Part shown: piece by piece, positions 5,219 through 28,683 of the stretch
Layout of the letters: each line of letters begins with the position of its first letter
How positions within the stretch are numbered: the first letter of the stretch is position 1
Source: Vicinamibacterales bacterium
GTDB taxonomy: Bacteria; Acidobacteriota; Vicinamibacteria; Vicinamibacterales; 2-12-FULL-66-21
NCBI GenBank assembly: GCA_036258175.1
Contig: DATAEE010000027.1
Location: forward strand, 2,779 to 66,778
Reading direction: 5' to 3'
DNA length: 64,000 bases
Position numbers and translations under genes: made by a program
The notes under the pieces: generated by a model
What the model was told of the DNA's origin: nothing
The model's database searches: none
What the model saw: the letters and a program-made list of their open reading frames with translations, nothing else

Positions 5219-5253
5219 CTCCGGTATGCCGGACGTTCTCCGCGATGCCGGAG
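5219..5253. promoter_or_regulatory. Tandem dyad sites (putative EBP upstream activating sequence, cluster S1)
   Basis: CTCCGGTATGCCGGAC (5219-5234) and CTCCGCGATGCCGGAG (5238-5253), 19 bp centre to centre. The same motif recurs at 7902, 19090, 24491 and 28628. Confidence 0.55.
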
Positions 5254-5293
5254 CCGACGGGACACTCTGGACGCAGATGCCGTGTAACACCGG

Positions 5294-5309
5294 TGGTACG
5301 CCTGCTGCA
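5294..5309 (+). promoter_or_regulatory. Candidate sigma-54 promoter for the 5354-7872 operon
   Basis: TGGTACGCCTGCTGCA with correct GG/GC spacing. 45 nt upstream of ATG 5354 and 69 bp from the centre of dyad 5219-5234. Confidence 0.5.
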
Positions 5310-5353
5310 AGATGCCGTGTCCACGTGAGCCATCCCGCGAGAGAGAGGATGCG

Positions 5354-5926
5354 ATGATGCTCGGAGAAAGAGCGACGACCGGTTTGATTTCGTTGGCGAT
5401 GCTGTCGGTGGTGGTGTCTTCCGCCTACGCCCAGACGGGTTCCGAGACGTTCACCGCCACGGCGGCGGTCAAGACGGCCGGTTCGGCTGCGGCAAGCGCA
5501 CCGGTGACGATTACGGTTACTCGCAAGATGCCACAGAGCGAAGCCGACAAGCTGCTCGCCGCCTTCAAGTCCGGCGGCGCCGCAGAGTTGCGGAAGGCGC
5601 TCGTTGGCGTTCCGCCCACGGGTTCCGTCCAACTCGGTGCCGGAAAACCGACGCAAACCCGGATGACGATCGAGCGAACCACCGACAAGGGCCGGCTCCT
5701 GACGATCGTGACCGACACCCCCATCCTCTTTCTGGGCGCCGGCGTCACGGGCGCCAAGCCCAAAGAGGGCTACGACTTCGCCATCATCGACCTCGAAGTG
5801 GACGCCAAGGGGGCCGGTTCGGGAACACTCGCGCCCGCAGCCAAGGTCACGGTGAAAGAGGGCGTGTTCGTGGTGGAGGACTATGCGTCCGAGCTCGTCA
5901 AGCTGACCGGCGTCGCGAGGAAGTGA
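5354..5926 (+). CDS. Secreted hypothetical protein (~190 aa)
   Basis: Start chosen at MMLGERATTGLISLAMLSVVVSSAYAQ (signal peptide) after the GAGAGAGGA RBS. No family recognised. Confidence 0.65.
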   Translation: MMLGERATTGLISLAMLSVVVSSAYAQTGSETFTATAAVKTAGSAAASAPVTITVTRKMPQSEADKLLAAFKSGGAAELRKALVGVPPTGSVQLGAGKPTQTRMTIERTTDKGRLLTIVTDTPILFLGAGVTGAKPKEGYDFAIIDLEVDAKGAGSGTLAPAAKVTVKEGVFVVEDYASELVKLTGVARK

Positions 5927-7872
5927 GTTCCGGGGAAGTGAGCCCATTGGCGCGTGAGACCATCGACACGACGCGAACGTCTCAGCTGGCCGTCGAGGCC
6001 TCGCCGAGCGGCGTCCTGCTCGTGACTTCGGACGGAACGATCGTCCTGGTCAATCGCGAGCTGGAGCGACAGTTCGGCTACGTGCGGGACGAACTGGTCG
6101 GCCAGTCCGTCAACCTGCTGTTGCCGGAGGATGACGCTCTCGCGCGTGTCATTGAAACCGAGTCCGTCGTCGAGGGGCGTGAGATTCACGGACGCCGCAA
6201 AGACGGCTCCCTCATCCCGGTCGAAATCGAGCTCACGCCGCTGCATGAGGCAGGCCGTGTGCTCGTGCTGGCGTCGGTCGTCGACATCACCGAGCGACAG
6301 CAGGTCGAAGACATCCATCGGAAGGCGCTCGAGAATCAGCTCGCGTTCGAGCGGCTCGTTGCGGAGCTCTCCGCACGATTCATCGACATTCACCCGGAGC
6401 AGATCGAATCGTCGATTCAGGATGGCCTGCGCCGGATCGTCGAATCGTTTGACCTCGACCGGGGCCTCTTTTACGCAATCGAACCGGACGGCGTGTTTTC
6501 TGACATCACGAGTTGGACGGGCCCGGATATCCCGAGCATCCCGCGGCGGGTGTCCGCGAAGGAACGCTTTCCGTTTACCCTCGAGCGGATCCTGTCGGGG
6601 GACGTCGTGTCGTTCTCGACGCTTGGCGAAATTCCAGACGAGCGAGACCGGGAATCGTTCCGAGCGCTCGGAACGAAATCGGCCGTCATCGTATCCATGT
6701 CAGTGGCAGGACGAGTGGCCGGGGCCGTCGGTTTCAGCACGGTGCGCGCCGAGCGGACGTGGGCGCCGCCGGTCGTGCACCGGTTCAAAGTCATCGCAAG
6801 CGTCTTCGCCCAGGTCATGTCGCGGCGCCAGAGTGAAGCCACCCTCCGAAACGCCCTGGCCGAAGTGGAGCGTCTGAAGGAAGACCTCCAGGTCGAGAAC
6901 GTGCACCTGCGGCGCGAAGTGCGCGAATGGTCAGGACCTGCGCCGATCGTCGGGCAGAGTGCGGCGATCCGGCAGGTGCTGGAGCAAATCGAGCAGGTGG
7001 CCGCGACAGATTCGACGGTCCTGCTGCTCGGCGAAACGGGAACCGGCAAAGAGCTGTTCGCGACGCAGATCCACGAACTCGGTCCGCGCCGCGACCGACC
7101 GATGGTGCGTACGAATTGCGCGGCGATTCCATCGACGCTCATCGAGAGCGAGTTGTTCGGCCGGGAAAAGGGAGCGTTTACCGGGGCGCTGGCCCGGCAG
7201 GTCGGCCGGTTCGAGCTCGCAAGCGGGTCGACGATTTTTCTTGACGAGATTGGAGACCTGCCGTCCGACGTGCAGGTGAAGCTGCTGCGTGTTCTGGAGG
7301 AGGGAACCATCGAGCGGCTCGGAAGCCCGCATCCGATCAAGGTCAACACTCGAATCATCGCGGCGACGCACCGGAACCTGGAGCGGCGCGTAGCTGAAGG
7401 GGCGTTCCGAAGCGACCTCTACTACCGGCTCAACGTCTTCCCCATTCGCGTGCCGCCGCTGCGGGAACGCGTGGACGATATTCAGATGCTGGCCTGGCGC
7501 TTCGTCGAGGAATTCTCGCGGACCTTTGGCAGACACGTGGAGGAGATCACGCCCGAAAGTCTGAGCGCGCTCAGGCACTATCCGTGGCCGGGCAACATCC
7601 GGGAACTGCGCAACGTCGTCGAGCGCGCGATGATCACGGCTTCGGGTCCTCGCCTGACCATCGCCCCGCCGCTCCTGTCGCCGGCCGCCGCGCGGCGAAG
7701 TCCCAAACTCGTGGACGTGGAGACCGAGCACATCCGCGGAGTACTGGAGAGTACCGGCTGGCGAATCCGCGGCCCCGGCGGCGCCGCGGACCGGCTCGGG
7801 CTCAAGCCCACGACGCTCGAAACGCGGATGGCAAAGCTCGGGCTCAAACGTCCGGGAACACAGCCCCACTAA
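5923..7872 (+). CDS. Sigma-54-dependent transcriptional activator, PAS-GAF-AAA+-HTH (EBP1)
   Basis: GETGTGKE Walker [25 protein letters not shown]-terminal [30 protein letters not shown]. The GTG start overlaps the upstream stop (GTGA). Confidence 0.9.
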   Translation: MSSGEVSPLARETIDTTRTSQLAVEASPSGVLLVTSDGTIVLVNRELERQFGYVRDELVGQSVNLLLPEDDALARVIETESVVEGREIHGRRKDGSLIPVEIELTPLHEAGRVLVLASVVDITERQQVEDIHRKALENQLAFERLVAELSARFIDIHPEQIESSIQDGLRRIVESFDLDRGLFYAIEPDGVFSDITSWTGPDIPSIPRRVSAKERFPFTLERILSGDVVSFSTLGEIPDERDRESFRALGTKSAVIVSMSVAGRVAGAVGFSTVRAERTWAPPVVHRFKVIASVFAQVMSRRQSEATLRNALAEVERLKEDLQVENVHLRREVREWSGPAPIVGQSAAIRQVLEQIEQVAATDSTVLLLGETGTGKELFATQIHELGPRRDRPMVRTNCAAIPSTLIESELFGREKGAFTGALARQVGRFELASGSTIFLDEIGDLPSDVQVKLLRVLEEGTIERLGSPHPIKVNTRIIAATHRNLERRVAEGAFRSDLYYRLNVFPIRVPPLRERVDDIQMLAWRFVEEFSRTFGRHVEEITPESLSALRHYPWPGNIRELRNVVERAMITASGPRLTIAPPLLSPAAARRSPKLVDVETEHIRGVLESTGWRIRGPGGAADRLGLKPTTLETRMAKLGLKRPGTQPH

Positions 7873-7901
7873 GCCCCATAGCGCAGTCGCGTTCTGCCAG
7901 C

Positions 7902-7936
7902 CTCCGGCATGCCGGGGAGCCTCTGCGATTCCGGGG
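7902..7936. promoter_or_regulatory. Tandem dyad sites (cluster S5) just after the EBP1 stop
   Basis: CTCCGGCATGCCGGGG (7902-7917) and CTCTGCGATTCCGGGG (7921-7936), 19-bp phasing. 26/35 identical to the 5219-5253 module. Confidence 0.5.
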
Positions 7937-8035
7937 GGGATGGTCGCATCGGCCCGCTCCGGTCGAGCCACGGAGAAGCAGCCAAGGTATTCATCCGGCT
8001 GCAGTAACGGGTCGCGGCGCTGATAGCTGACGGCG

Positions 8036-8051
8036 TGGAACGACTGCTGCT
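8036..8051 (+). promoter_or_regulatory. Candidate sigma-54 promoter for the 8052-15685 operon
   Basis: TGGAACGACTGCTGCT with correct GG/GC spacing; -12 region CTGCT as at 5294 and 28703. It abuts ATG 8052, so using it would imply the ATG 8064 start and an almost leaderless mRNA. Confidence 0.35.
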
Positions 8052-8390
8052 ATGCGGGATGGCATGGTGAGGCTGGCCGTGGCGCTGAGAGGGTCGGCGC
8101 GCCACGCTCAGGAGCTCGTCGAAACCTTCCGCTTCCTGATCGTGAGCACCCGGCTCGAACCAGGCTGTCTGGGTTGCTCCGCGTGGGCGGACCCGGACTC
8201 GACCGTTCACTACGTCGAGGAATGGACGACCGAACCCGAGATGCGGCGCCGCGTGCAGTCCGCGAACTTCACATCACTTCTGGCGGTGCTCGAAGCCGCA
8301 CGCGAGCCGCCGCGCATCCAGTTTCAGTTCGTTTCGACCACGCGCGGGCTCGACTACGTGGAGGAAGTCAGGCGCGACTCCGTGAGCTGA
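8052..8390 (+). CDS. ABM (antibiotic biosynthesis monooxygenase-like) domain protein
   Basis: Pattern ...LEPGCLGCSAWADPD..VHYVEEWTTEPEMRRRVQS..F fits the ABM fold. Alternative start ATG 8064 (MVRLAV). Confidence 0.55.
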   Translation: MRDGMVRLAVALRGSARHAQELVETFRFLIVSTRLEPGCLGCSAWADPDSTVHYVEEWTTEPEMRRRVQSANFTSLLAVLEAAREPPRIQFQFVSTTRGLDYVEEVRRDSVS

Positions 8391-8400
8391 CGGCGACCCG

Positions 8401-9174
8401 ATGAAGCTAAAACAGTACGAGAAAACGCTGCGGAAACTGCAGGTGCAGCTCTGCCACCTCCAGGAATGGGTCAAACAGAAAGGCCTGCGCGTCGTCGTCG
8501 TGTTCGAAGGACGGGACGGCGCCGGCAAGGGAGGCACGATCCGGGCCCTTACCGAACGGGTGAGCCCGCGTGTGTTCAGGGTCGTGGCCCTGCCGGCCCC
8601 GTCGGATCGCGAGAAGTCGCAGGTGTACATGCAGCGCTACCTGCAGCACTTCCCCGCCGCCGGCGAAATCGTCATCTTCGATCGGAGCTGGTACAACCGC
8701 GCCGGCGTCGAGTACGTCATGGGATTCTGCTCTGAGACCGAGCATCGGCGGTTTCTGGAGCTCTGTCCTCAGATCGAAAAGTTCATGGTGGACGGCGGCA
8801 TCATCCTGATCAAGCTGTGGCTGGAAGTGAGCAACAAGGAGCAGCAGCGGCGCTTCGAGGCGCGGATCAAGGATCCGGTGCGCCAGTGGAAGCTGAGCCC
8901 GATGGACTTACCGTCGCGAAAGCGCTGGTACGACTACTCCCGCGCGCGCGACATGATGTTGAAGAAGACCGATACGCGCTACGCTCCCTGGTACATCGTC
9001 CGGTCGGACGACAAGCGGGCGGCGCGTCTCAATACGATTTCCCATCTGCTGTCACGAATCCCGTACAAGAAGCTGCCTCGCGAGAAGATCAAGCTCCCGG
9101 GGCGGTCGTCCAAGCGCGCGTACGACGACGACGCGTCAATCAAACGCCGGCGTTTCGTCCGCGAGCGGTATTGA
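8401..9174 (+). CDS. ppk2: Polyphosphate kinase 2, single-domain
   Basis: VVVVFEGRDGAGKGGTI Walker A, FDRSWYNRAGVE, WKLSPMD, APWYIVRSDDK: canonical PPK2 motifs. Confidence 0.9.
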   Translation: MKLKQYEKTLRKLQVQLCHLQEWVKQKGLRVVVVFEGRDGAGKGGTIRALTERVSPRVFRVVALPAPSDREKSQVYMQRYLQHFPAAGEIVIFDRSWYNRAGVEYVMGFCSETEHRRFLELCPQIEKFMVDGGIILIKLWLEVSNKEQQRRFEARIKDPVRQWKLSPMDLPSRKRWYDYSRARDMMLKKTDTRYAPWYIVRSDDKRAARLNTISHLLSRIPYKKLPREKIKLPGRSSKRAYDDDASIKRRRFVRERY

Positions 9175-9179
9175 ATGCC

Positions 9180-10322
9180 ATGAAGACGCTCGTTATCGTT
9201 GCCGCCACAGTACTCGTCATCGCGCAATCCACGAAGGCGCCGAAGCCGGAGGAGCTCGACCGTCTGCTTGCGCCGGTCGCGCTGTATCCCGATGCGCTCC
9301 TGGCGCAGATGCTGCTCTGCACCTCGAACCCCGGCAAAGTGGGCACGCTCAACGAATGGCTCGCCAGCAACAGCACGCTGAAAGGCACCGAACTGCAGGA
9401 AGCCGCCACGAACGCTGGGTTCGAGCCGAGCTTCGCCGCCCTCGCCCTCTTTCCTCAGGTCGTGGAGTTCATGGCCGGCCAGCCCGATTGGACGGCGAAG
9501 CTTGGACAGGCCTTCGCCGCGGATCGCAAAGCGGTGTTCGCCAGCATCCAGCAGTTGAGAGCGCAAGCGAGCAAAGCCGGCAACCTGAAGGACACGCCAC
9601 AGCAGGACGTGGAGACCCGCACGACCTCGAGCGGAGAGCAGGTGATCGTGATCGAGCCGGCGAATCCGCAAATCGTGTACGTCCCGCAATACAACCCCCA
9701 GGTCGTCTACACGCAGCCGACCACATCCACCGTGGTCGTCCAGGACGACGATGACGACGATGCGGCGCTCGCGGGCGTGATTGGTTTTACGGCCGGCATT
9801 GCGATTGGCGCGGCCATCGACAACGACTACTACTACGGGCCCTACGGGTGGCATGGCGGCGGCTACATGTATAACGACGCCTGGGACGACTACTACGACG
9901 CGCGCGAAGACGCGCGCGAGGACTGGCAGGACCATCGCGAGGACCTGAACGAGGATCGGAGCGACCGACGCGAGGACCTTGCCGACGAGCGCGGTGAGCG
10001 GGCGGGTACGGCGCAGGAACAACGTACTGAACGCCAGCAGACCCGGCAGGAGAACCCGCAGACGCAGGCGCAGCGCGAGCAGCGCCGGACCGAAGCGCAG
10101 GGCAAGGCGGAGCAGGCCCGGAGCTCGGGCGCGAGCGCGAGCGGCGCGAGCACGAGTCAGGCATCCCGGGGGTACAGTGGCAGTCAGGCAGCCACGCAGC
10201 GCAGCTCCGGATCGGACGCGTTCTCCGGCTACTCGAGTGGAAAATCCACGCGCGCGTCCAGCTCGCGCGGCCAGAGCAGCAGGAGCGGCGGCTCGCGCGG
10301 TGGAGGAGGGAGGCGCCGATGA
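9180..10322 (+). CDS. DUF3300 family secreted protein with poly-Asp / Tyr-Gly-rich / RGG C-terminal extension
   Basis: LAPVALYPDALLAQML...LFPQVV motif typical of DUF3300. Start at MKTLVIVAATVLVIAQ (signal). Tail ...VQDDDDDD...YYYGPYGWHGGGY...SRGGGGRRR. Confidence 0.75.
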   Translation: MKTLVIVAATVLVIAQSTKAPKPEELDRLLAPVALYPDALLAQMLLCTSNPGKVGTLNEWLASNSTLKGTELQEAATNAGFEPSFAALALFPQVVEFMAGQPDWTAKLGQAFAADRKAVFASIQQLRAQASKAGNLKDTPQQDVETRTTSSGEQVIVIEPANPQIVYVPQYNPQVVYTQPTTSTVVVQDDDDDDAALAGVIGFTAGIAIGAAIDNDYYYGPYGWHGGGYMYNDAWDDYYDAREDAREDWQDHREDLNEDRSDRREDLADERGERAGTAQEQRTERQQTRQENPQTQAQREQRRTEAQGKAEQARSSGASASGASTSQASRGYSGSQAATQRSSGSDAFSGYSSGKSTRASSSRGQSSRSGGSRGGGGRRR

Positions 10323-11245
10323 CTCGCAAGACAGCGTCGGCTATCGCGTACGCGTTGACCGCCGCTCTTTCATGCGCAGCGTGCTCCTGGTCGACGCCGC
10401 AGCAGCGCACGTTTCGCGCGCCGGAAGATGCCGTGCGGGCGTTGACCGAGACGACGAAGGCAGGCAACGTCGACGAGCTCGTCGCCATCTTCGGCGCCGA
10501 CGGCAAGGAGCTCGTCGCGTCGTCCGATCCGGCAACCGCGCGCAAGAACCGCGAAGTATTCACGGCGGCGATGGCCGAGCGGTGGCGGCTCGAAGACCAG
10601 GGGTCCGGTGGCAAGGTGCTCGTCATCGGCAACGAGGACTGGCCGTTCCCGGTCCCGCTCGTGAAGGATGGCAACAACTGGCGCTTCGACACTGCGGCCG
10701 GAAAAGAAGAAGTGCTGACGCGCCGGATCGGCCGCAACGAGCTCGCCGTTATCCAGGTCTGCCGGACATACGGCAACGCTCAACGGATCTATGCGCACTC
10801 CGGACACGACGGCAAGCCCGCCGGCCTCTATGCGAAAACGTTCGCCAGCGACCAGGGTAAACAGAACGGCCTGTACTGGCCCGCGTCGCATGGCCAGAAG
10901 CGCAGTCCACTCGGCGACCTCGTCGCGCAGGCAGCCGCAGAAGGCCGATCGGTTGGCGGCGGGGCCGCCCAGCCCTCGCCGTTTTACGGCTACTACTTCA
11001 AGATCCTGACGGCACAAGGACCGGCGTCGCCCGGCGGCGCAAAGGATTACATCTCCAACGGTGAGTTGTCAGGCGGGTTCGCGCTGGTCGCGTGGCCCGC
11101 TCAGTACGATGTCACAGGAATCATGACGTTCATCGTCAATCACGATGGCGTCCTTCACGAGCAGGCTCTGGGACCAGACACCGACAAAGTGGCCAGGACG
11201 ATGACCGCTTACAATCCTGACGCGTCCTGGAGCCCTGTTCAGTAA
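10319..11245 (+). CDS. DUF2950 family protein
   Basis: WPFPVPLVKDGNNWRFD, GYYFKILTAQG, GGFALVAWPAQYDVTGIMTFIVNHDGV: DUF2950 hallmarks. Classical partner of DUF3300. 4-nt overlap with the upstream gene. Confidence 0.8.
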   Translation: MTRKTASAIAYALTAALSCAACSWSTPQQRTFRAPEDAVRALTETTKAGNVDELVAIFGADGKELVASSDPATARKNREVFTAAMAERWRLEDQGSGGKVLVIGNEDWPFPVPLVKDGNNWRFDTAAGKEEVLTRRIGRNELAVIQVCRTYGNAQRIYAHSGHDGKPAGLYAKTFASDQGKQNGLYWPASHGQKRSPLGDLVAQAAAEGRSVGGGAAQPSPFYGYYFKILTAQGPASPGGAKDYISNGELSGGFALVAWPAQYDVTGIMTFIVNHDGVLHEQALGPDTDKVARTMTAYNPDASWSPVQ

Positions 11246-11273
11246 CAGCAGAGCTACAACACGGCGGTGACCG

Positions 11274-14063
11274 ATGGCGAGTACCGACCAGCAGTCTGGC
11301 GCGGAGTCCCAGCGCCTTGCCGACGCGCGTGACGGCCGCGCGCTCTGGCGAAAATGGGGGCCCTACCTCAGCGAGCGGCAATGGGGAACCGTTCGCGAGG
11401 ATTACAGCGAGTCGGGCGACGCGTGGAATCACTTCAGCCACGATCAGGCCCGTGCACGCGCCTATCGGTGGGGGGAGGACGGCCTCGCCGGGATATCGGA
11501 CAACAAACAGCTGCTCTGCTTCGCGCTGGCCCTCTGGAATGGCAAAGATCCCATCATCAAAGAACGTCTCTTCGGTCTGACGAACAGCGAGGGGAATCAC
11601 GGCGAGGACGTGAAGGAGTACTACTTCTATCTCGACTCGACGCCCACGCACTCGTACATGAAGTATCTGTACAAGTACCCTCAGTTGGCGTACCCGTACG
11701 ACCAGATCGTCCTGAAAAACCGCCAGCGGGATCGACACGCGCTCGAGTACGAGCTTCTCGACACCGGCGTGTTCGATCAGGACCGGTACTTCGACGTGTT
11801 CGTCGAGTACGCCAAGGCCGCACCTGAAGACATTTTGATCCAGATCACGGTCGCAAACCGCGGGCCCGAGCCGGCCACGCTTCACGTCCTGCCAACCATC
11901 TGGTTTCGCAACACGTGGTCGTGGGGCGGAGACGTTCCCAAGCCATCGCTGAAGCAGATCGATGCCGGCAGCATCGAGGCCTCCCATCCGGATCTGGGAG
12001 GAAGAGTCCTTGATGCGGACGGCGCGCCGGCCTGGCTCTTCACTGAAAACGAAACGAACGTCGAGCGGCTCGTCCACGTCCCCAACCGCACGCCCTATGT
12101 GAAGGATGCGATCAACAGCTACTTCGTGCAGGGCCGGCGGAATGCGGTGAACCCTGAAAAGACCGGGACGAAAGCTGCGGCCCAGTATCAGGTGACGGTC
12201 GGCGCGGGCGCCTCAGAAGTCGTGCGCCTGCGCTTTTCCGATGTGGGCCCGACTGGCGCGCCGAAGAGCGGGCGCGGCGACCGGTTTGGCGCAGCGTTCG
12301 ACGCGATCATGACCACCCGCCGGCGCGAGGCCGACGAGTTCTACGCGTCGGTCATCCCGTCGTCGCTCGGCGCCGATGCCGCCAACGTGATGCGACAGGC
12401 GCTGGCGGGGATGCTCTGGTCGAAGCAGTACTACAACTACGACGTCGACCGCTGGCTCTCCGAGAGGGGCTCGGATCCGTTCAAGGCCCGGCGGCGCGCG
12501 GCGCCCCGCAACGATCGCTGGCATCACATGCAGAACGCGGACGTGATCTCGATGCCGGACAAGTGGGAGTACCCGTGGTACGCGGCGTGGGACCTGGCCT
12601 TTCACATCCTCGCGCTCACGCTCGTCGACGAAGACTTCGGCAAGCAGCAGCTTGACCTCATGCTGCAGGAACGTTATCTCCATCCCAGCGGACAGATTCC
12701 CGCATACGAGTGGAACTTCGGCGACGTCAATCCGCCCGTGCACGCCTGGGCGACGATCTTCACCTACCGCCTGGAGCAGGGCCGGCACGGCCGGGGCGAT
12801 CTCGAATGGCTCGAGCGGTCGTTCCACAAGCTGTTGCTGAACTTCACCTGGTGGGTGAATCGGAAAGACCGCTCCGGCAACAACGTCTTCGACGGCGGCT
12901 TCCTTGGTCTCGACAACATCGGCGTCTTCGACCGGAGCGCGCCGCTGCCCACCGGCGGCAACCTGGAACAGGCGGACGGCACCGCGTGGATGGCGCTCTT
13001 CTGCCAGAACATGCTCGAGATCTCAGCGCAACTGGCGCTCGAAAAGCCCGCCTATGGCGACATGTGTCTCAAGTTCGTCGAACACTACCTCTGGATCGCC
13101 TCGTCGATGATCCACGCCGGCGACGATGTCGGGATGTGGGACGAGGAGGATGGGTTCTTCTACGACGTGCTGAGGCTGCCGGATGGTCGGGCGCAACGTC
13201 TGAAGGTGCGCTCGATGGTGGGGCTGCTCCCCTTCTGTGCCGTGACGGTGTTCGACGGAGAGCTCCTGAAAAAGTACCCGGAGCTCGCTCCCCGTTTCCG
13301 CCGGTTCCTCGACGCGCGCCCGGAGCTGACGGCGTTGATCCAGGATCCCGGAACGCGCGGAGAGCGGGACCGCCGGCTCGCCGCGATTCTGAACGAAGCG
13401 AACCTGCGTCGCGTGCTGGCGAGGATGCTCGACGAGAACGAGTTCCTCAGCCCATACGGCATCCGTTCGATCTCCCGCTATCACGAAAAACATCCGTACG
13501 TCTTCCGCCTCGGGGACCAGGAGTACCGGGTTTCCTACCTGCCGGCGGAATCGGACACCGGGATGTTCGGCGGTAACTCCAATTGGCGCGGTCCGATCTG
13601 GATGCCGGTCAACGGGCTGATTGTCCGCGCGCTGCTTCAGTACTACGCTTACTACGGAGACAGCTTCACCGTGGAGTGTCCAACCGGCTCCGGACGCCGC
13701 ATGACGCTCTACGAGGTCGCGGAGGAGATCTCCCGGCGTCTCGGCAACATCTTCCTGCGAGACAAGGACGGACGCCGGGCGGTCTACGGCGCAACCCGGA
13801 AGTTCCAGGAAGATCCGCACTGGCGCGATCTGATCCTGTTCTACGAGTACTTCCACGGTGACAACGGCGCCGGACTTGGGGCCAGCCACCAGACCGGCTG
13901 GACGGGCATCGTCGCGCGCACGATGCAGTTGTTTGCCACGACGACGGCCGAGCAGGTTGTCGAACTGGGCAAGGCCGCAACTGCAACGGACCATCGAAAG
14001 GATTCCAGGCGGCCGGGCGTGAACGCGCCGGACCGAGTCGAGGCGCCGCCGGTCGCCAGGTGA
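11274..14063 (+). CDS. GH63-like / MGH1-like glycoside hydrolase (glucosidase family), 929 aa
   Basis: N-terminus WRKWGPYLSERQWGTVREDYS...RAYRWGEDGLAG and the (alpha/alpha)6-type C-terminal half (WEYPWYAAWDLAFH, NWRGPIWMPVN) recall the bacterial GH63-like family. Family call made from memory. Confidence 0.65.
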   Translation: MASTDQQSGAESQRLADARDGRALWRKWGPYLSERQWGTVREDYSESGDAWNHFSHDQARARAYRWGEDGLAGISDNKQLLCFALALWNGKDPIIKERLFGLTNSEGNHGEDVKEYYFYLDSTPTHSYMKYLYKYPQLAYPYDQIVLKNRQRDRHALEYELLDTGVFDQDRYFDVFVEYAKAAPEDILIQITVANRGPEPATLHVLPTIWFRNTWSWGGDVPKPSLKQIDAGSIEASHPDLGGRVLDADGAPAWLFTENETNVERLVHVPNRTPYVKDAINSYFVQGRRNAVNPEKTGTKAAAQYQVTVGAGASEVVRLRFSDVGPTGAPKSGRGDRFGAAFDAIMTTRRREADEFYASVIPSSLGADAANVMRQALAGMLWSKQYYNYDVDRWLSERGSDPFKARRRAAPRNDRWHHMQNADVISMPDKWEYPWYAAWDLAFHILALTLVDEDFGKQQLDLMLQERYLHPSGQIPAYEWNFGDVNPPVHAWATIFTYRLEQGRHGRGDLEWLERSFHKLLLNFTWWVNRKDRSGNNVFDGGFLGLDNIGVFDRSAPLPTGGNLEQADGTAWMALFCQNMLEISAQLALEKPAYGDMCLKFVEHYLWIASSMIHAGDDVGMWDEEDGFFYDVLRLPDGRAQRLKVRSMVGLLPFCAVTVFDGELLKKYPELAPRFRRFLDARPELTALIQDPGTRGERDRRLAAILNEANLRRVLARMLDENEFLSPYGIRSISRYHEKHPYVFRLGDQEYRVSYLPAESDTGMFGGNSNWRGPIWMPVNGLIVRALLQYYAYYGDSFTVECPTGSGRRMTLYEVAEEISRRLGNIFLRDKDGRRAVYGATRKFQEDPHWRDLILFYEYFHGDNGAGLGASHQTGWTGIVARTMQLFATTTAEQVVELGKAATATDHRKDSRRPGVNAPDRVEAPPVAR

Positions 14064-15735: not shown

Positions 15736-15738
15736 GTC

Positions 15739-18992: not shown

Positions 18993-18996
18993 GCCA
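18981..18996 (-). promoter_or_regulatory. Candidate sigma-54 promoter for the DUF3302-HlyD-OMF operon
   Basis: Minus strand reads TGGCATGGCGAGTGCT with correct GG/GC spacing. Overlaps the first ATG (18992). -12 box GTGCT is identical to the atpB candidate. Confidence 0.4.
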
Positions 18997-19070: not shown

Positions 19071-19106
19071 CTCCGACATTGCGGGCGTTCTCCGGTATAC
19101 CGGAGA
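19071..19106. promoter_or_regulatory. Dyad cluster S2: perfect 18-bp palindrome plus a weak phased partner
   Basis: TCTCCGGTATACCGGAGA (19089-19106). Weak partner CTCCGACATTGCGGGC (19071-19086) 19 bp away. Lies between the DUF3302 operon and EBP2. Confidence 0.55.
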
Positions 19107-19140
19107 GCTCCACCGTGGGGTAACCCTTGACGCCTTCGAT

Positions 19141-21057: not shown

Positions 21058-21945
21058 AAAGTGGGTGCGGCGCGGCCAGAAAGCTCGCGCCGGAGACTCC
21101 TGCCGCCGGAATAGTGCGACCGCCACCAGCATCAACGGGATTTCCGTCAGCGCGTAGGTCGTCGCAAAGCGGGCGAACTCAACCCGGCCGAGCAGCGTCA
21201 CCGCAATCGCGATCGCGACGCCTATGTTCCGGGTGCCAAATTCGGCTGCGAGCGTGAACCGATCACGTCTGTCTGGCGTGAGCGGTACAGCAGTCAGCCA
21301 GCCGGCGGCCATCGAGGCCAGCACGAATGCCGCCGCCAGTGGGACCGTCGTCGTCAGGCCAGCCGCGAATAAGCCAGGGTCGGCCGCGATCACGAGCAGG
21401 AACACGATGCCGATGCCGATGAAAGACGCTCGTCGGAGCGCGGGTCCATACCGCTCCGCACTGCCTGGCACCCGGCGTCGCATCCACATACCGAGTGCCA
21501 CCGGCAGACCAAGCAACAGCACGACCTGGGCAATCAGCACCGGAACCGGCGCCGACAACGGGAAGGGGCGGGCAAGTGCCAACGCAATGCCGGCGCCCAC
21601 TAGCGGAATCGTCAGGAAGCCCGCCATGCAGGACAGGCCGGTCAGCGTGACCGACAGCGCGGTCGATGCCCTCGCCAGGTAGCTCCACGTCGTCGAAATA
21701 CCGCCGATCGGACACGCCGCGATGAGCAGCACGCTCGCGGTGATTTCCGGGCCGGATCCGAATAACCACGTGAGGGCGACCGCGAGCGGCGGAAGGAGTA
21801 CGAGCGGCGCGACGAGACCGGTGAGAACGACGGCAGGCTGGCGGCGAACGCGAGCGAAGTCGTTGGGCGTCAGGTCCAACCCGACGGCGGCGAGCAGGAT
21901 GAACGCCGTCGCCGGGGCCGCGATGCTGACGAGCGCGAAGACCAT
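21052..21945 (-). CDS. Bile acid:sodium symporter (BASS/SBF-like) family transporter
   Basis: 297 aa polytopic: [33 protein letters not shown]. Confidence 0.75.
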
Positions 21946-24312
21946 TTACCGGCGTACGGTCAGCTGAACGCCGATCTGCCGGGTATCGCCCGGACGCCCG
22001 CCAATCGCGGGTGGCGGCGAGCTGAACGTGCCGGTGATGTAGTCCTCGTTCGTCAGGTTCCGGGCGTACGCGCCGATCGAGAGCCCGCGGCCGCGAGTCT
22101 CGAGCTCGGCGCTCAGTTCAAGAAGGCCGTACGGACGCTGGCGCTGGATGGCGTCGTTGAACGGCGTAAAAAAGACTGTGCTCTGCCAGCGGGAATCGCC
22201 GCGAAGCGACAAAAGGCCGGCGCGACGCACGTCGGTCGTCCATTCGAGCCAGATACGCCCGGACCATTCAGGCGCGTTCGTCAGCCGATGGCCGGCGACG
22301 TCGGTGGTGACGCCACCTGCACCAACCGCCAAGTATTGGTCGTAGGTGGCATCGAGCCACGCGACGTGCCCTCCGCCGTGGAGCGACGGACCAAGCTGCA
22401 TTTCCGCTTCCAGTTCGAGACCACTGATCGTCGCGGCGGCCGCATTGGAAATATCGATGACCCCGGGTCGAAAGGTACTCATGACTTGGAGATCCGTATA
22501 GTCGGTGTGAAAAACGGCGACGCTCGTCCTCGCCCGTCCGTTGGCGAGGCTCGCTTTCACTCCGCCTTCATAGCTCCAGGCCCACTCGGGCGCGTACCCG
22601 CGCCCGGCCTCCGGTGACGCGAGGTTGAAGCCGCCGCTCTTGAACCCGCGCGTGGCGGATACATAGGCGAACGTGGACCGTCCCACTTGCACGTCGAGTC
22701 CAACTTTCGGCGTCCACGCGGTATGCGAGATGTCATCTGTGTACGTATACGTCGCGCCCGCCACGGGGAACGGCGGATGGTCGAAGGTGTACAGTCCGCC
22801 CGCGTTGTCGATCGTCTTCCGCTCGCGCGTGTAGCGGAGGCCGCCGGTCAGCGACACGCGCGATGTGAGATCCAGCGTGGCCTGGCTGAAACCTGCCAAT
22901 GAGTTGGCGGCGACCTCCGGCAGGAGGCGGTTCTCCAGCCGCTGCGCGCCGAGCGCGACGAACGTCGGCTGGCGATCGAACTCGTCCAGCACGAACACTC
23001 CAGCGATCCACGACAGCCGTCCCCGCTGCTGCGAGATCGTGAGCTCCTCTGACAGCTGATGCTGCATCTCGCGAGGGTGAGAGATCGCCAGATTCAGCTC
23101 GGTAATGTCTGCGTCCACGATGAAGTCGTAATCCAGCTTCCGGAATGCAGTCAGGCTGGTCAGGACCGTGTCGGGCGCCAGATGCATCGTGAACCGGGCC
23201 GCGCCGCCGTACTGAAGGTTCCGGCCCTCTGCAAGCGTCGACGTGCGCACTTCGTGAAGATCGGCGGGGTTGTCGATCTGGAACCCCGGCTTCACCGCGA
23301 GCACCTTGGCATAGACGAGCGGCGCCGGGTCGCGGTGGGTCAGATCGGCCGACAGAAGCAGGTTGGTCTGCCGGTTGAAGACGACGTGCAGCTTGGCGCG
23401 GGCGGCGGTGACGTCCTCGGCGCCAAGAGGATGGTCCGGATGATTCAAGTCGCGGACGAAGCCTTCGCGTACTCCACGTAAGAACGACACGCTGCCCAGA
23501 AGCCTGTCCCGAACGATCGGACCGCTCACCCGCGCCTCGGCCCGGACCAGGTCGGAGCTCCCGACATCCAGTCGGGCGGAAGCCTCCATCTCGTTCGTTG
23601 GCGGCTTCGTGACGACGTTCAGTGCGCCACCCACGGCGTTACGTCCATAGAGCGTGCCCTGCGGGCCTCGAAGCACTTCGACCCGATCGAGGTCCATGAA
23701 GTCGGCGAGCACCATCGCCGGGCGCGCGAGGTAGACGCCATCGACATACACGGCCGAACTCGGATCGGATCCCGCAAACACCGCATTCGTTCCGATCCCG
23801 CGAATCGTGAGCTGCGCGAAACCGGTGTTCTGCGAAAACGTGACCGACGGCGCCCGACCAGCAAGCTGCTCGACGGTTTGAAGCTGCACGCGTCGCAGGT
23901 CGGATGCTGGCAGCACGCTCACCGCCATCGGCGTCGTCAGTGCGTCGCGCTCTCCGGTCTTGCCCGCCGTCACGATCGCCTGCTCGAGAAACTGGATCGA
24001 TAGCGTTATCGGAAGACTGACCGTCGCATCGGCGCCGAGTCGAAACGTCCGGCGCGCCGGCAGAAACCCCGTCAGGGACGCGGTGAGCTCGTACTCACCG
24101 TCTGGGAGACCCGCGAAGCGATAGTCGCCGGTGGGGCCGGTCTCGGTGATGGCGCCGACCGGTCCGCGGAGACTCACGGTCACACCCACGAGCACGGCAC
24201 CCGTGGAGTCCGTAACCCGACCGCTGACTTGTGCCGCAGGTTGACCGGCCGCGGCCGATAGATTGGCAAAAAGGAGACACGCGAGCCAACCGCCGGCCGG
24301 CTGGAGAGGCAT
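21946..24312 (-). CDS. TonB-dependent receptor with N-terminal carboxypeptidase-regulatory-like domain
   Basis: Start set at MPLQPAGGWLACLLFANLSAAAG (signal). SGRVTDSTGAVLVGVTVSL...GDYRFAGLPDGEYEL, plug (VEVLRGPQGTLYGRNAVGGALNV) and barrel ending in aromatic-rich strands. Confidence 0.85.
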   Translation of the reverse strand: MPLQPAGGWLACLLFANLSAAAGQPAAQVSGRVTDSTGAVLVGVTVSLRGPVGAITETGPTGDYRFAGLPDGEYELTASLTGFLPARRTFRLGADATVSLPITLSIQFLEQAIVTAGKTGERDALTTPMAVSVLPASDLRRVQLQTVEQLAGRAPSVTFSQNTGFAQLTIRGIGTNAVFAGSDPSSAVYVDGVYLARPAMVLADFMDLDRVEVLRGPQGTLYGRNAVGGALNVVTKPPTNEMEASARLDVGSSDLVRAEARVSGPIVRDRLLGSVSFLRGVREGFVRDLNHPDHPLGAEDVTAARAKLHVVFNRQTNLLLSADLTHRDPAPLVYAKVLAVKPGFQIDNPADLHEVRTSTLAEGRNLQYGGAARFTMHLAPDTVLTSLTAFRKLDYDFIVDADITELNLAISHPREMQHQLSEELTISQQRGRLSWIAGVFVLDEFDRQPTFVALGAQRLENRLLPEVAANSLAGFSQATLDLTSRVSLTGGLRYTRERKTIDNAGGLYTFDHPPFPVAGATYTYTDDISHTAWTPKVGLDVQVGRSTFAYVSATRGFKSGGFNLASPEAGRGYAPEWAWSYEGGVKASLANGRARTSVAVFHTDYTDLQVMSTFRPGVIDISNAAAATISGLELEAEMQLGPSLHGGGHVAWLDATYDQYLAVGAGGVTTDVAGHRLTNAPEWSGRIWLEWTTDVRRAGLLSLRGDSRWQSTVFFTPFNDAIQRQRPYGLLELSAELETRGRGLSIGAYARNLTNEDYITGTFSSPPPAIGGRPGDTRQIGVQLTVRR

Positions 24313-24470
24313 GGTGGGGCGGCTGAGTGTACCGGCCAGTGTGCGAGCCCAGTATTGGACCTTAGGCCTATACCGCTCGCCATCCGATGGGAGTACAAAT
24401 GTCTGTCGAACGCAACACGTAAGCTCATGGTGCGGTTGGGCTAAGGCTCCATCCGCCAATTCTCGCAGGC

Positions 24471-24523
24471 ATCCGGTAATTCACATGACGGTCCGGAATG
24501 CCGGAGCTGAAAAATTTCCGGAG
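24471..24523. promoter_or_regulatory. Dyad cluster S3 between the TonB receptor and EBP3
   Basis: Full site GTCCGGAATGCCGGAG (24491-24506), flanked by half sites TCCGGTAAT (24472) and TTCCGGAG (24516-24523) at about 17-20 bp phasing. Confidence 0.5.
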
Positions 24524-24557
24524 TTTTCGTTGAGGGGCTTGCAGGCTGCGATATAGA

Positions 24558-26537
24558 GTGAAGCCAAACCAGACAATCACTATGGCCGAACGAGCGAGGC
24601 CCCTCTCCGAGACCGGGCCCAGGTGGCCCGTCACGGACGATCAGGGTCTGTTTCGTCTCGCAGCGGAGTCGCTGCCGAGCGGCATCGTTGTCGTCGCGCC
24701 GGACGGAACCATCGTGCTCGTCAGTCACCAGCTCGAATTGCAGTTCGGATATTTCCGCGAAGAACTGATCGGGCAATCTGTCGACATTCTCGTGCCCGAA
24801 GAATCTCGCGCAGGGACCGGTGAGCCGCAGTCAGCACGCGGCCGCAACCTGCACGGGCGGCGCAAAGATGGGAGCGTCTTCCCGGCTGAGATCGGGCGGA
24901 CCCGGCTCGAAACCGACGAGGGCGTTTTCGTTCTCTGGTCTGTCGTCGACCTCAGTGCCCGGCTCGACGTCGAAAATGCTTCCAGGCAGGGGATCGAACG
25001 GGAGCTCGAGTTCGAGCGGCTCATCGCGGAGCTGTCCTACAAGTTCATCAACCTGCCGCCCGATGAAGTCGTCGAGGCCATTCGCGACGCGCTGCGACGC
25101 ATCGGCGAGGCACTCGAGATCGAACGGTGCTCGTTCTTTCGGGTTCAGCCGGACGGCGAGCTGCTCGCACCGATCAGCTGGGCGCGGGCCGGCATCGCGC
25201 AGCCACCCGTCGTGACGGCGGCCAGGGAGCACTTTCCCTGGGCCGTCGACAATATCCAGAGCGGCCGCATGTTCTGCTTTTCCACGACCGCGGAAGTGCC
25301 GAGCGACGTGGACCGCGCGGGGTACGAGGGATACGGCATTCGCTCATCCGTGACGGTCCCGATCCGCGTGGCCGGCCGCGTCGTGGGCGCGCTCGGGTTC
25401 AACATGGTTGAGCGGGAACGCGTATGGTCGCCGGAGACCCTTCATCGCCTCACGGTGTTGGCCACCATCTTCGGAAACGTCCTCGCGCGCCTGGAAGGGG
25501 ACACAGAGTTGCGTCAAGCGATCTCCGACGTCGAATGTCTTCGCGAGCGCCTGGATGCGGAAAACAGGTACCTCCGCCGCGAGGTTCAGGAGCGGCTTGG
25601 GACCGGGGCCATCATCGGTCAGAGCGCGGCGGTCCGCCGTGTGCTCGAACAGATCCGCCAGGTGGCGAGCACCGACTCGACCGTGCTGCTGCTCGGCGAG
25701 ACCGGCACGGGAAAGGAGCTTTTTGCGACGCAGATCCACGAGCTCAGCGGACGGCGCGATCGGGCGATGGTGCGCGTGAATTGCGCGGCGATTCCCGCGA
25801 CGCTCATGGAAAGTGAATTGTTCGGTCGCGAGAAGGGGGCGTACACCGGCGCGCTCGCCCGGCAGATCGGCCGCTTCGAGCTCGCCAACCATTCGACGAT
25901 CTTCCTCGACGAGATCGGCGACCTTCCGCCGGACGTCCAGGTCAAACTGCTGCGCGTGCTGGAGGAGCGGCAGATCGAGCGCCTTGGCAGCCCCAGGAGC
26001 ATCAACGTGGACGTGCGGATCATCGCGGCCACGCATCGGGATCTCGACAAGCGAATCCTCGATGAAGCGTTCCGGGAGGACCTCTACTATCGGCTCAACG
26101 TCTTCCCGATCCGCGTGCCGCCGCTTCGTGAGCGCGTTGAGGACATCCCGCTGCTCGTCTGGCGATTCGTCGAGGAGTTCTCCAAGTCGTTTGGCAAGCG
26201 GATCGACGCGATCCCGAACGAGAACATGGCGGCGCTGCAGCGGTACGCGTGGCCAGGGAATATCCGCGAGCTTCGCAACGTCGTCGAACGCGCGATGATC
26301 GTCGCGATCGGCACCCGGCTGACGATTCCACTTACAGCGTCGGAGACGCGTCCGGCAACAAAACCGCGCACCACCACGCTGGCGGATCTCGAGAAGGCGC
26401 ACATCCGCCTCGTGCTGGAAAACACCGGCTGGCGCATCCGGGGTGCGGGCGGCGCCGCCGAGCAGCTGGGTCTCAAGCCGACGACGCTCGAAACGCGAAT
26501 GGCGAAGCTGGGCCTGGCGCGCCTCCGGCCAAACTAA
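24558..26537 (+). CDS. Sigma-54-dependent transcriptional activator, PAS-GAF-AAA+-HTH (EBP3), GAYTGA variant
   Basis: GETGTGKE; loop reads GAYTGA (25836-25853); GWRIRGAGGAAEQLGLKPTTLETRMAKLGL. Possible start at ATG 24582. Confidence 0.9.
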   Translation: MKPNQTITMAERARPLSETGPRWPVTDDQGLFRLAAESLPSGIVVVAPDGTIVLVSHQLELQFGYFREELIGQSVDILVPEESRAGTGEPQSARGRNLHGRRKDGSVFPAEIGRTRLETDEGVFVLWSVVDLSARLDVENASRQGIERELEFERLIAELSYKFINLPPDEVVEAIRDALRRIGEALEIERCSFFRVQPDGELLAPISWARAGIAQPPVVTAAREHFPWAVDNIQSGRMFCFSTTAEVPSDVDRAGYEGYGIRSSVTVPIRVAGRVVGALGFNMVERERVWSPETLHRLTVLATIFGNVLARLEGDTELRQAISDVECLRERLDAENRYLRREVQERLGTGAIIGQSAAVRRVLEQIRQVASTDSTVLLLGETGTGKELFATQIHELSGRRDRAMVRVNCAAIPATLMESELFGREKGAYTGALARQIGRFELANHSTIFLDEIGDLPPDVQVKLLRVLEERQIERLGSPRSINVDVRIIAATHRDLDKRILDEAFREDLYYRLNVFPIRVPPLRERVEDIPLLVWRFVEEFSKSFGKRIDAIPNENMAALQRYAWPGNIRELRNVVERAMIVAIGTRLTIPLTASETRPATKPRTTTLADLEKAHIRLVLENTGWRIRGAGGAAEQLGLKPTTLETRMAKLGLARLRPN

Positions 26538-26554
26538 ACGAACGCTGCTTGGGA

Positions 26555-26584
26555 GGTAGGGGCGGTTCGCGAACCGCCCCTACC
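26555..26584. terminator. Perfect 30-nt palindrome between convergent genes
   Basis: GGTAGGGGCGGTTCG/CGAACCGCCCCTACC, between the stops at 26537 and 26591. Confidence 0.6.
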
Positions 26585-26590
26585 CGACTC

Positions 26591-27914: not shown

Positions 27915-27950
27915 GTTGGTGACCTCCTTGAAGCGAGCCTTACGATCGAC

Positions 27951-28499
27951 CTACGTCTGCTGCTTCGGCGGGTAGTTCTTGAAGATCTTCTTCATCGCAT
28001 CATTGATGCTCTTGTCGCGCTTCTCGGGACTGGCCTGCGTCTTGACCTCCTTCGTGGCCATCCCGCGCCACGCCAGCTTCGACTGCTTCGCGTCGGCGAT
28101 GTCGATGACAAGCGTCCCGATCAGGATGTCCCGCACCTGCGTCGTTGACGTACCCATGCCACCGCCCCACCCCCAGCCATACGGGCCGTAGCCGCCGCCG
28201 TAGCCGCTGCTGTATGTCGAGATGTCCTTCTGCTTGTCGAACGCGATGTGATAGACGACGAACACGTCGGGGTCCGATTCGGCCTTCGTGAGTCCCTTCG
28301 CGGCGAGCTGCGCGTCGATGGCCGCCACGATGCGGTCGTCGACCAGCGGCTGCCCGACCTTTGTGCCTTCCTTGTGCGCGTACGTCTTGAAGCCGGCGAA
28401 GTTCGCGGACTTGTCGTAGTCGTAGCTGACCTTCTGCGCGAAGACGAGCGTCGGTGAGAGGAGAGCGGCAATAGCCAGGGTCACGAGTTTCCTCTGCAT
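27951..28499 (-). CDS. DUF4136 domain lipoprotein-like protein
   Basis: Start at MQRKLVTLAIAALLSPTLVFAQ. Contains VDDRIVAAIDAQLAAKGL..PDVFVVYH...TLVIDIADAKQSKLAWRG...INDAMKKIFKNYP. Paralog at 62281. Confidence 0.7.
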   Translation of the reverse strand: MQRKLVTLAIAALLSPTLVFAQKVSYDYDKSANFAGFKTYAHKEGTKVGQPLVDDRIVAAIDAQLAAKGLTKAESDPDVFVVYHIAFDKQKDISTYSSGYGGGYGPYGWGWGGGMGTSTTQVRDILIGTLVIDIADAKQSKLAWRGMATKEVKTQASPEKRDKSINDAMKKIFKNYPPKQQT

Positions 28500-28548
28500 G
28501 CGTCTTTCCTTTCGTTCGAATGTTGCTTCGACAGGCGCCGGTGGGGGC

Positions 28549-28564
28549 TGCAATTGTCAAGCCG
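28549..28564 (-). promoter_or_regulatory. Candidate sigma-54 promoter for the DUF4136 operon (or a sigma-70 -35 box)
   Basis: Minus strand reads CGGCTTGACAATTGCA: perfect TTGCA -12, GGC at -24, correct spacing. About 50 nt upstream of ATG 28499. Also contains TTGACA. Confidence 0.35.
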
Positions 28565-28627
28565 CGCGGGGCCACCCGTTACGATGGTTCGGAATAGCGG
28601 TTCGCGCAATGGGACCTAGGGTGTAGG

Positions 28628-28683
28628 CCCCGGCATTTCGGAGGAACTCCGTTCGGGCGGAGGAATACCGTTGAAATCCGGAG
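28628..28683. promoter_or_regulatory. Dyad cluster S4: three phased sites between divergent operons
   Basis: CCCCGGCATTTCGGAG (28628), CTCCGTTCGGGCGGAG (28647), CCGTTGAAATCCGGAG (28668). Spacing 19 and 21 bp. Confidence 0.5.

Follow-up and report, generated by a model that had tools for sequence, protein, structure and literature searches.

Classical sigma-54 enhancers, such as the NtrC sites at glnAp2 and the NifA sites TGT-N10-ACA, are dyads lying at least 50 bp upstream of their promoters, often in pairs, and work through DNA looping (PMC12754779). In M. xanthus, PexR (MXAN_1565), a GAF-AAA+-helix-turn-helix (HTH) protein, activates sigma-54 promoters by binding to CACCG-n6-CGGTG repeats placed in tandem upstream of them, and it represses the sigmaA-type promoters that its repeats overlap, that of its own gene included (PMC12754779). 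In A. vinelandii, the paralogous sigma-54 activators VnfA1 and VnfA3, which differ in their sensory domains, bind and co-activate the same promoters (PMC9542535). Here, we analyzed a stretch of 64,000 nt (65% G+C) from a Vicinamibacterales bacterium (contig DATAEE010000027.1; hereafter, the window), in which a 16-bp dyad, CTCCGG-N4-CCGGAG, recurs in five spacers around the genes of three paralogous sigma-54 activators, EBP1, EBP2, and EBP3. Sequence comparisons indicate that the dyad is very probably an enhancer, or upstream activating sequence (UAS), serving as the docking site of a large PAS-GAF-AAA+-HTH subfamily of sigma-54 activators in Acidobacteriota, with the three paralogs most likely sharing sites. 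It is a well-supported new example of a familiar bacterial switch, and the type of mechanism is itself textbook.

PexR and its box are the closest tested analogue. Both motifs are 16-bp interrupted palindromes of the 5-N6-5 form, arranged in tandem upstream of -24/-12 elements, with a 5′ half better conserved than the 3′ half, and the repeats of PexR at its own sigmaA-type promoter recall the dyad clusters beside EBP2 and EBP3 (C and D below). Four of the five half-site bases are shared (C-A-C-C-G for PexR, C-T-C-C-G in the window), with position 2 being different. However, PexR is without the PAS domain of EBP1-3, has three repeats per enhancer where two are usual in the window, and targets ahpC and katB, neither of which is among the neighboring genes of the window. 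The sequence CACCG-n6-CGGTG was not found in the window and occurred in unrelated loci just as isolated single boxes. Judged by their sequences, EBP1-3 are not members of the PexR regulon, as box sequence, architecture, and targets all disagree.

The VnfA1/VnfA3 pair is a tested case of one regulon served by more than one sensor (PMC9542535), but its family, motif, and physiology (nitrogenase, metals) are unlike those considered here, and co-activation by the pair needs an accessory protein, VnfZ (PMC9542535). The small protein encoded by orf190, co-transcribed with EBP1, is not an obvious VnfZ counterpart, since its signal peptide makes export probable. Classical enhancers share with our clusters the dyad symmetry, the upstream position, and the pairing, but differ in sequence, and the tandems in the window are tight, at 19 bp center to center.

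Most database labels for these activators read formate hydrogenlyase transcriptional activator (FhlA). The AAA+ and HTH halves indeed align well with FhlA, a GAF domain is present, and the HTH is of the GAAxRLG(L/M)KxTTLxSRMKxLG(I/L) type. Identity with FhlA was nevertheless rejected: EBP1-3 scored 362-383 bits in NF011958 against a cut-off of 830, matched only positions ~344-688 of the profile, with the FhlA-specific N-terminal half absent, and, unlike FhlA, carry a PAS domain. No hyc, hyp, or fdhF genes were found in the window or in related loci. NifA (TIGR01817, 357-369 bits; cut-off, 528.85) and NtrC (equivalog, 272-301; cut-off, 559) were rejected in the same way, and the cut-offs of NorR and other equivalogs were likewise missed. 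Our literature search found no description of the dyad motif or of acidobacterial sigma-54 activators of this type, and Acidobacteria go unmentioned in a survey of sigma-54 regulons from 2025.

The dyad in the window and in related loci

The seven sites quoted in a preliminary description of this DNA were all recovered at the same coordinates and with the same sequences. Together with their partners, they make up five candidate UAS clusters:

Cluster A, 5219-5253: tandem of CTCCGGTATGCCGGAC (5219-5234) and CTCCGCGATGCCGGAG (5238-5253), 19 bp apart, flanked by predicted divergent sigma-54 promoters.
Cluster B, 7902-7936: tandem of CTCCGGCATGCCGGGG (7902-7917) and CTCTGCGATTCCGGGG (7921-7936), 30 bp past the EBP1 stop codon.
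Cluster C, 19071-19105: CTCCGACATTGCGGGC (19071-19086) and the perfect dyad CTCCGGTATACCGGAG (19090-19105), in the spacer between the DUF3302 operon and EBP2.
Cluster D, 24491-24523: dyad GTCCGGAATGCCGGAG (24491-24506) and a right half-site, CCGGAG (24518-24523), in the spacer between the TonB-dependent receptor gene (minus strand) and EBP3.
Cluster E, 28628-28662: CCCCGGCATTTCGGAG (28628-28643) and CTCCGTTCGGGCGGAG (28647-28662).

With at most one mismatch, CTCCGG-N4-CCGGAG matched the window six times, against 0.73 ± 0.80 in shuffled sequences, and six matches were reached in none of 100 shuffles. Five of the six lay in spacers (5219, 5238, 7902, 19090, and 24491). The sixth, at 32170, is intragenic and without the central AT, and it looks like a chance match. 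Allowing up to three mismatches removed the enrichment (82 matches versus 89 ± 10 in shuffles), so only the stringent form or a matrix is informative. A symmetrized matrix was trained on the seven sites, with a match threshold of at least 14 bits and dinucleotide shuffles as the null; it returned eight matches in the window versus 0.175 expected, a contrast that is partly circular, and all eight were non-coding.

The clusters had been described as entirely non-coding, and this holds after gene starts were corrected (orf190, ATG 5354; ABM, ATG 8064; DUF3302, ATG 18941 on the minus strand; EBP2, GTG 19165; EBP3, ATG 24582; DUF4136, ATG ~28499 on the minus strand). The tandem spacing of 19 bp was reproduced for 5219/5238, 7902/7921, 19071/19090, and 28628/28647, and direct comparison of the 35-bp modules at 5219 and 7902 gave the reported 26 identities in 35 positions. 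The weaker partners proposed at the same time fared unevenly: that at 19071 is genuine and, like that at 28647, conserved, that at 24508 is just the right half-site of cluster D, and those at 24472 and 28668 are not conserved and probably reflect chance.

Orthologous spacers were compared in about ten other Acidobacteriota contigs whose activators are 51-90% identical to those of the window. These included L081 (activator 90% identical), L082 (81%), L001 (65%, an Acidobacteriota metagenome-assembled genome), and L083-L085 (64-66%), together with L086, which carries an EBP2 ortholog (74%), L087, L166-L168, with EBP3 orthologs, and L169. An island of ~30 kb is syntenic in several relatives, running from atp through orf190-EBP1, the ABM-PPK2 operon, MscS, DUF3302-HlyD-OEP, EBP2, (SBF-TonB), EBP3, and DUF4136 to an 800-aa protein. 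In the spacer alignments, the tandem dyads were invariant or nearly so, and the surrounding sequence was divergent. Cluster A was near-invariant in L001, L081-L085, L087, and L169; cluster B formed an invariant block in L081 and L082 and was found in L001, L083-L085, and L169. Cluster C was invariant in L086, with a tandem equivalent in L166-L168, and its partner site at 19071, which scored 14.2 bits in the matrix, was kept in all four of these contigs. Both dyads of cluster E were kept in L083, L167, and L168, that at 28647 as CTCCGGTC(G/C)AGCGGAG, and the third element at 28668 was not.

The contigs L083-L085 (65.8 kb), which were not used in building the matrix, contained 18 matches of at least 14 bits versus 0.35 in shuffles. 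Seventeen of the 18 fell in the 14.8% of their DNA outside called genes (binomial P = 1.2e-13). Coding DNA is almost free of the motif, as the preliminary description requires, with none of eight matches coding in the window and one of 18 in the independent loci. A profile of 32 independent sites read C29 T32 C31 C31 G32 g n A32 T32 t c C29 G32 G31 a g, in which conservation is higher on the left than on the right half. The tandem partner was 19 bp away in most pairs and 18-21 bp away in a few. Because some second dyads, such as CTCCGTTCGGGCGGAG at 28647, retain only the outer pentamers, the core is CTCCG-N6-CGGAG with a near-invariant central AT, and the full consensus is CTCCGGnATtCCGGAG.

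Two blocks other than dyads are also conserved between enhancer and promoter, at 7983-7995 and 5157-5177 of the window. One block, CAAGGTATTCATC, is kept in L081, L082, and L169 and bears a weak likeness to a reverse IHF site; another, CTGATTTCAAAAGCGCTTGAC, is kept in L081 and L082. These blocks may be sites of a DNA-bending protein or of a second regulator. In the long contigs L166-L168, the genes for the activator, the TonB-dependent receptor, OEP, and HlyD-type proteins are split into pieces, which probably reflects frameshift errors of long-read assembly and not true pseudogenes; gene calls there are thus not trustworthy.

Predicted sigma-54 promoters and the activators associated with the dyad

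Both strands of the whole window were scanned with a weighted pattern, TGGCACG-N4-TTGCW, requiring GG and GC ten bases apart. Only eight sites scored at least 17.4, and five of them lay 25-140 bp from a cluster and pointed away from it, against 0.07 expected, in agreement with the earlier proposal that the motif is tied to sigma-54 promoters. The elements beside the clusters are as follows:

5109-5124, minus strand: predicted -24/-12 element TGGCACGCCCCGTGCT of the F-type atp operon.
5294-5309, plus strand: predicted -24/-12 element TGGTACGCCTGCTGCA of orf190 and EBP1, kept in all orthologous loci.
8036-8051, plus strand: predicted -24/-12 element TGGAACGACTGCTGCT of the ABM to MscS operon (to 15685).
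18981-18996, minus strand: predicted -24/-12 element TGGCATGGCGAGTGCT of DUF3302, HlyD-type, and OEP genes (to 15739), kept in L086.
28549-28564, minus strand: sigma-54-like -24/-12 element CGGCTTGACAATTGCA of the DUF4136 gene.
28703-28718, plus strand: predicted -24/-12 element CGGCACGGTGACTGCT of the genes for the 800-aa secreted protein, MIP channel, and OMP beta-barrel.

Clusters A, B, C, and E thus occupy the position typical of enhancers, about 50-150 bp upstream of a -24/-12 element, and D does not. Clusters A and E are each flanked by two divergent sigma-54 promoters, and a single enhancer appears placed to serve divergent units there and probably also at cluster C. The view that each site stands beside an activator gene needs correction for the cluster at 28628, which lies 2.1 kb from EBP3 between divergent -24/-12 elements. 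The placement of the sites is organized by the sigma-54 promoter, often by two divergent ones, and not by nearness to an activator gene. Given the -24/-12 element of the DUF3302 genes, cluster C is best regarded as primarily the enhancer of this efflux-type operon and not merely as an EBP2-adjacent site.

The geometry of enhancer and promoter in the window is repeated in seven related loci. Before orf190-EBP1, the whole cassette of minus-strand promoter, tandem dyads, and plus-strand promoter is kept in L001, L081-L085, and L169. In the same contigs, the promoter on the atp side is kept as TGGCACGnnCCGTGCT, ~100 bp from the dyads, irrespective of the downstream gene, which is not always atp: a 160-aa open reading frame (ORF) takes this place in L083 and MscS in L084. 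In L083 and L084, a CGGCnnGnCAATTGCA-type element lies 61-72 bp from the dyads.

EBP2 and EBP3 seem to be transcribed from promoters other than sigma-54. A sigma-70 consensus scan called no promoter for either gene; TAGACT at 19152 (EBP2; kept in L086) and TTGAGG-N16-TATAGA at 24530-24557 (EBP3), both picked by eye, are weak guesses, and an autoregulatory role for clusters C and D is likewise a guess. The EBP2 start codon, GTG 19165, lies 7-8 nt past the conserved TAGACT. At the ABM gene, a conserved start, (C)ATGGT(G/T), lies 14-15 nt past the C of the -12 GC (window 8049-8066; L001 8109-8126; L169 ~12730), so the predicted transcript would be leaderless or nearly so.

The three activators of the window are as follows (the gene table was built by GC3-guided ORF choice and Pfam):

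EBP1, 5923-7872, plus strand: PAS-GAF-AAA+ (sigma-54 interaction, GAFTGA)-HTH_8, 649 aa.
EBP2, 19165-21057, plus strand: PAS-GAF-AAA+-HTH_8; likely start, GTG 19165.
EBP3, 24582-26537, plus strand: PAS-GAF-AAA+ (GAYTGA variant)-HTH_8; likely start, ATG 24582.

All three contain the AAA+ sigma-54 interaction domain (PF00158, E 1e-69 to 3e-70) with the Walker A peptide GETGTGKE and a C-terminal Fis-type HTH (PF02954, HTH_8, residues ~596-640). The sigma-54 contact loop is GAFTGA in EBP1 and EBP2 and GAYTGA in EBP3 (window 25600-25640, residue ~420). By PF00158, the Walker motif, and HTH_8, these proteins classify as bona fide sigma-54 activators. Their sensory regions had been thought to differ more than their HTHs, and pairwise identities bear this out (PAS, 48-54%; GAF, 42-49%; AAA+, 72-80%; HTH, 77-83%). 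Near-identity of the HTHs, noted for the three window proteins, extends to the relatives: the recognition helix TTLETR(M/L)AKLG occurs in all paralogs of all related loci, and WRIRGxGGAAxRLGLKPTTLETRMAKLGL is almost invariant in the best 120 (60-98% identical overall) of 7,963 sigma-54 activator matches. With an identical recognition helix, the paralogs cannot discriminate among sites at the sequence level. Among solved structures, ZraR was the sole relative of the C-terminal domain (E 0.2). A heme-PAS was considered and rejected, as the closest sequences are FixL and DosP, but the position of the proximal His is R, H, and T in EBP1, EBP2, and EBP3, respectively, and the helix and loop that follow are much shorter (both by eye); we make no claim of heme binding or O2 sensing.

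The motif was then related to the HTH across 168 fetched loci. An early profile from the alignment of the three paralogs, keyed on generic AAA+ peptides (GETGTGKE), had yielded mostly unrelated activators, with only L001 close, and these loci were reused as a negative control. Loci whose activator carries TT(L/M)E(T/S)R(L/M/I)x(K/R)LG (119 kb) contained 31 matches of at least 14 bits, and those of other activators (1338 kb) contained 10, a density ratio of ~35-fold. Eight of these 10 off-signature matches came from L086, in which the ortholog is cut by the contig end, or from L089 and L090, in which the stop codon of a GAF-only relative, whose helix is similar (TTLDSRIQKLGL), is directly followed by two dyads.

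Variant boxes accompany variant helices. In L015 (7072-7105), TGCCG-N6-CGGCA occurs twice, 18 bp apart, with the helix KRTTLQSKMKKLGI; in L093 (3258-3292) and L098 (5584-5618), CCCCG-N6-CGGGG occurs twice, 19 bp apart, with the helix KPSTLESRMRKLGI. In these three loci and in L089 (5569-5604), tandem xxCCG-N6-CGGxx boxes, 18-20 bp apart, stand directly past activator stop codons, the outer dinucleotides being TG in L015, CC in L093/L098, and CT in L089. Together with the CA of the PexR box, they suggest that such boxes form a family in which the outer bases co-vary with the recognition helix.

Proposed mechanism and alternative readings

The motif, its conservation, its restriction to spacers, and its links to -24/-12 elements and to the HTH signature can be read directly from the DNA. 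From these, we infer that the activators bind the dyads, activate from them, and share them among paralogs. An activator dimer would dock on each 16-bp dyad through its Fis-type HTH, and dyads 19 bp apart would seat two dimers side by side. A signal received at the PAS/GAF region would lead the AAA+ domains to build an active ring, which DNA looping would carry to the sigma-54 RNA polymerase held in a closed complex at the -24/-12 element, 50-130 bp away, where ATP hydrolysis would open the promoter. EBP1, EBP2, and EBP3 would most likely all use the dyads, so that three sensory inputs would converge on one regulon. Positive autoregulation would be expected of EBP1, whose operon has both a predicted sigma-54 promoter and an enhancer. 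The shared operator suggested in the preliminary description is supported as far as its cis-regulatory core goes, the element being best viewed as an enhancer (UAS) and not as an operator in the repressor sense.

Several points weigh against this enhancer model. The matrix was trained on the window sites, so that the statistics of the window, unlike those of the independent loci, are partly circular. Cluster D fits poorly: its dyad is conserved in one of four comparable loci (L166), being absent from L167 and L168, where EBP3 directly follows EBP2, and from L169, and neither EBP3 nor the TonB-dependent receptor gene has a convincing -24/-12 element, the best candidate being GGGCTTGCAGGCTGCG. 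The -24/-12 elements depart from consensus, with TGGTAC, TGGAAC, or CGGCAC at -24 and CTGC for TTGC at -12. Proteins were matched to sites by co-occurrence, sharing and partitioning of sites among the paralogs would look alike in sequence, and rpoN is not encoded within the window.

Of the alternatives, the one that survives best is that the circuits are insulated, each paralog serving only the sites by its own gene, with no single three-input regulon; we regard this as unlikely. As insulation would predict, C2 is centered on (T/C/G)ATAC in the window as well as in L086 and L166-L168, and clusters A and B mostly have ATG or ATT; but ATA centers also occur in cluster A (L085 9244, L169 9826) and ATT in C1, so that segregation is not clean. 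Likewise, the residue before PTTLETR (K/R/P/Q) differs among the paralogs, and K and M of EBP1 and EBP3 are replaced by R and L in EBP2, yet the helix TTLETR(M/L)AKLG is common to every paralog. VnfA1 and VnfA3 of A. vinelandii, which have the same DNA-binding domain, bind the same targets (PMC9542535).

It is considerably less probable that another factor encoded elsewhere, such as a repressor or co-regulator, occupies the dyad, with the activators using another sequence. The other conserved spacer blocks (5157-5177 and 7983-7995) leave room for such a sequence, but nothing supports this reading positively: motif density tracks the HTH signature over ~1.4 Mb of activator loci, no block at a distance from -24/-12 typical of enhancers is conserved more strongly than the dyads, and no further DNA-binding gene is conserved in the neighborhood in related loci. 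Moreover, altered recognition helices in relatives go with altered outer dinucleotides of otherwise identical tandem dyads. That the dyads act as nucleic-acid structure, namely, a REP-like palindrome or a terminating or stabilizing hairpin, is scarcely credible: each site can pair as a G+C-rich stem of 5-6 bp with a 4- to 6-nt loop, and cluster B and its equivalents lie directly 3′ of activator genes, but the stems are without a T-run, a terminator scan of 5000-8200 was empty, all but one of the five clusters occupy divergent spacers, upstream of promoters, where transcription is not required, conservation extends beyond pairing (loop AT; an invariant, unpaired left half; right-arm mismatches that often break the stem), and the fixed 19-bp spacing fits side-by-side dimers better than hairpins.

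Within the enhancer model, a bolder version is possible but doubtful, in which the paralogs (three in the window, two to four in relatives) would co-occupy the dyads as mixed rings and the enhancers would integrate their inputs, the output being a dedicated energy and ion-homeostasis program widespread in uncultured soil Acidobacteriota. This program would comprise a second F-type ATP synthase with a truncated delta subunit, whose operon in relatives also includes MscS and SulP genes, as well as PPK2, an aquaporin-type channel, and envelope proteins.

Predicted targets, significance, and neighboring genes

The genes beside the clusters, other than those of the activators, are as follows:

577-5084, minus strand: F-type atp operon (a subunit, 4233-5084; c; b; N-terminally short delta of 130 aa; alpha; gamma).
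5354-5926, plus strand: orf190.
8064-15685, plus strand: ABM (8064-8390), PPK2, DUF3300, DUF2950, GH63-like, and MscS.
18941-15739, minus strand: DUF3302, HlyD-type, and OEP.
21052-24459, minus strand: SBF and TonB-dependent receptor.
~28499-27951, minus strand: DUF4136.
28782-32554, plus strand: 800-aa secreted protein (28782-31184), MIP channel (31254-31880), and OMP beta-barrel (31916-32554).

The predicted targets of the dyad clusters are the F-type atp operon, orf190-EBP1, ABM-PPK2-DUF3300-DUF2950-GH63-MscS, DUF3302-HlyD-OEP, DUF4136, and the operon of the 800-aa protein, aquaporin-type channel, and OMP. Speculatively, this set (MscS, MIP, GH63/mannosylglycerate-hydrolase-like, PPK2, SulP in relatives, an extra ATP synthase, and exported proteins of unknown type) might point to a program for ion, osmotic, and energy stress and for the envelope.

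Acidobacteriota rank with the most abundant bacteria in soil but are almost untouched genetically, and many of their sigma-54 activators are mislabeled FhlA in databases. This subfamily now has a motif, a promoter architecture, and at least 120 close homologs with a near-invariant HTH, and with motif and architecture in hand, its regulon should be predictable directly from metagenome assemblies. The immediate predictions concern an extra ATP synthase operon, mechanosensitive and aquaporin-type channels, polyphosphate kinase 2 (PPK2), and conserved envelope proteins of unknown function. The locus could also serve as a natural system for studying how paralogous sensors converge on one enhancer. 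If true, the covariation of outer dinucleotide and recognition helix would be a readable specificity code for this class of HTH, for which the dyad, the PexR box, and the variants in other loci would form a starting set. Added weight thus comes from the size and ecology of the family, the putative sigma-54 control of an extra ATP synthase, and the hint of a specificity code.

The complete F-type atp operon is apparently driven by the sigma-54 promoter at 5109-5124, sharing enhancer A (window 577-5124, minus strand). Its delta subunit, at 130 aa, is short at the N terminus, covering positions 54-172 of the OSCP profile. In relatives, the operon continues into genes for MscS and a SulP/STAS transporter (L085 694-9153; L169 1-9766), and the enzyme it encodes looks like an accessory ATP synthase under stress regulation.

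At the head of the EBP1 operon, orf190 is better conserved than EBP1 itself. Its homologs number more than 1000, every one of them labeled hypothetical, and the best 120 are 66-88% identical, bar one identical copy. No Pfam or NCBIfam family matched its product, and its AF2 model (pLDDT 78; beta-rich with one long helix) had no fold match in the PDB (best E 0.14; TM below 0.4).

Farther along the window, two pairs of genes for MacB-like FtsX permeases (877 and 878 aa) lie at 44368-47341 and 59111-62213 (minus strand), each preceded by a small gene, a 111-aa ORF (47006-47341) in the first case and a PadR-family regulator (61752-62213) in the second. A second, two-domain PPK2 is encoded at 51988-53793 (plus strand). 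The dyad is not present at the permease pairs or at this PPK2 gene. The 800-aa secreted protein (28782-31184, plus strand) matches no Pfam family and has a long Tyr/Gly/Pro-rich and then Arg/Gly/Ser-rich low-complexity tail. In relatives, its gene (~800 aa in L083) is kept beside DUF4136 and enhancer E, after a SpoIIAA-like gene that is absent from the window.

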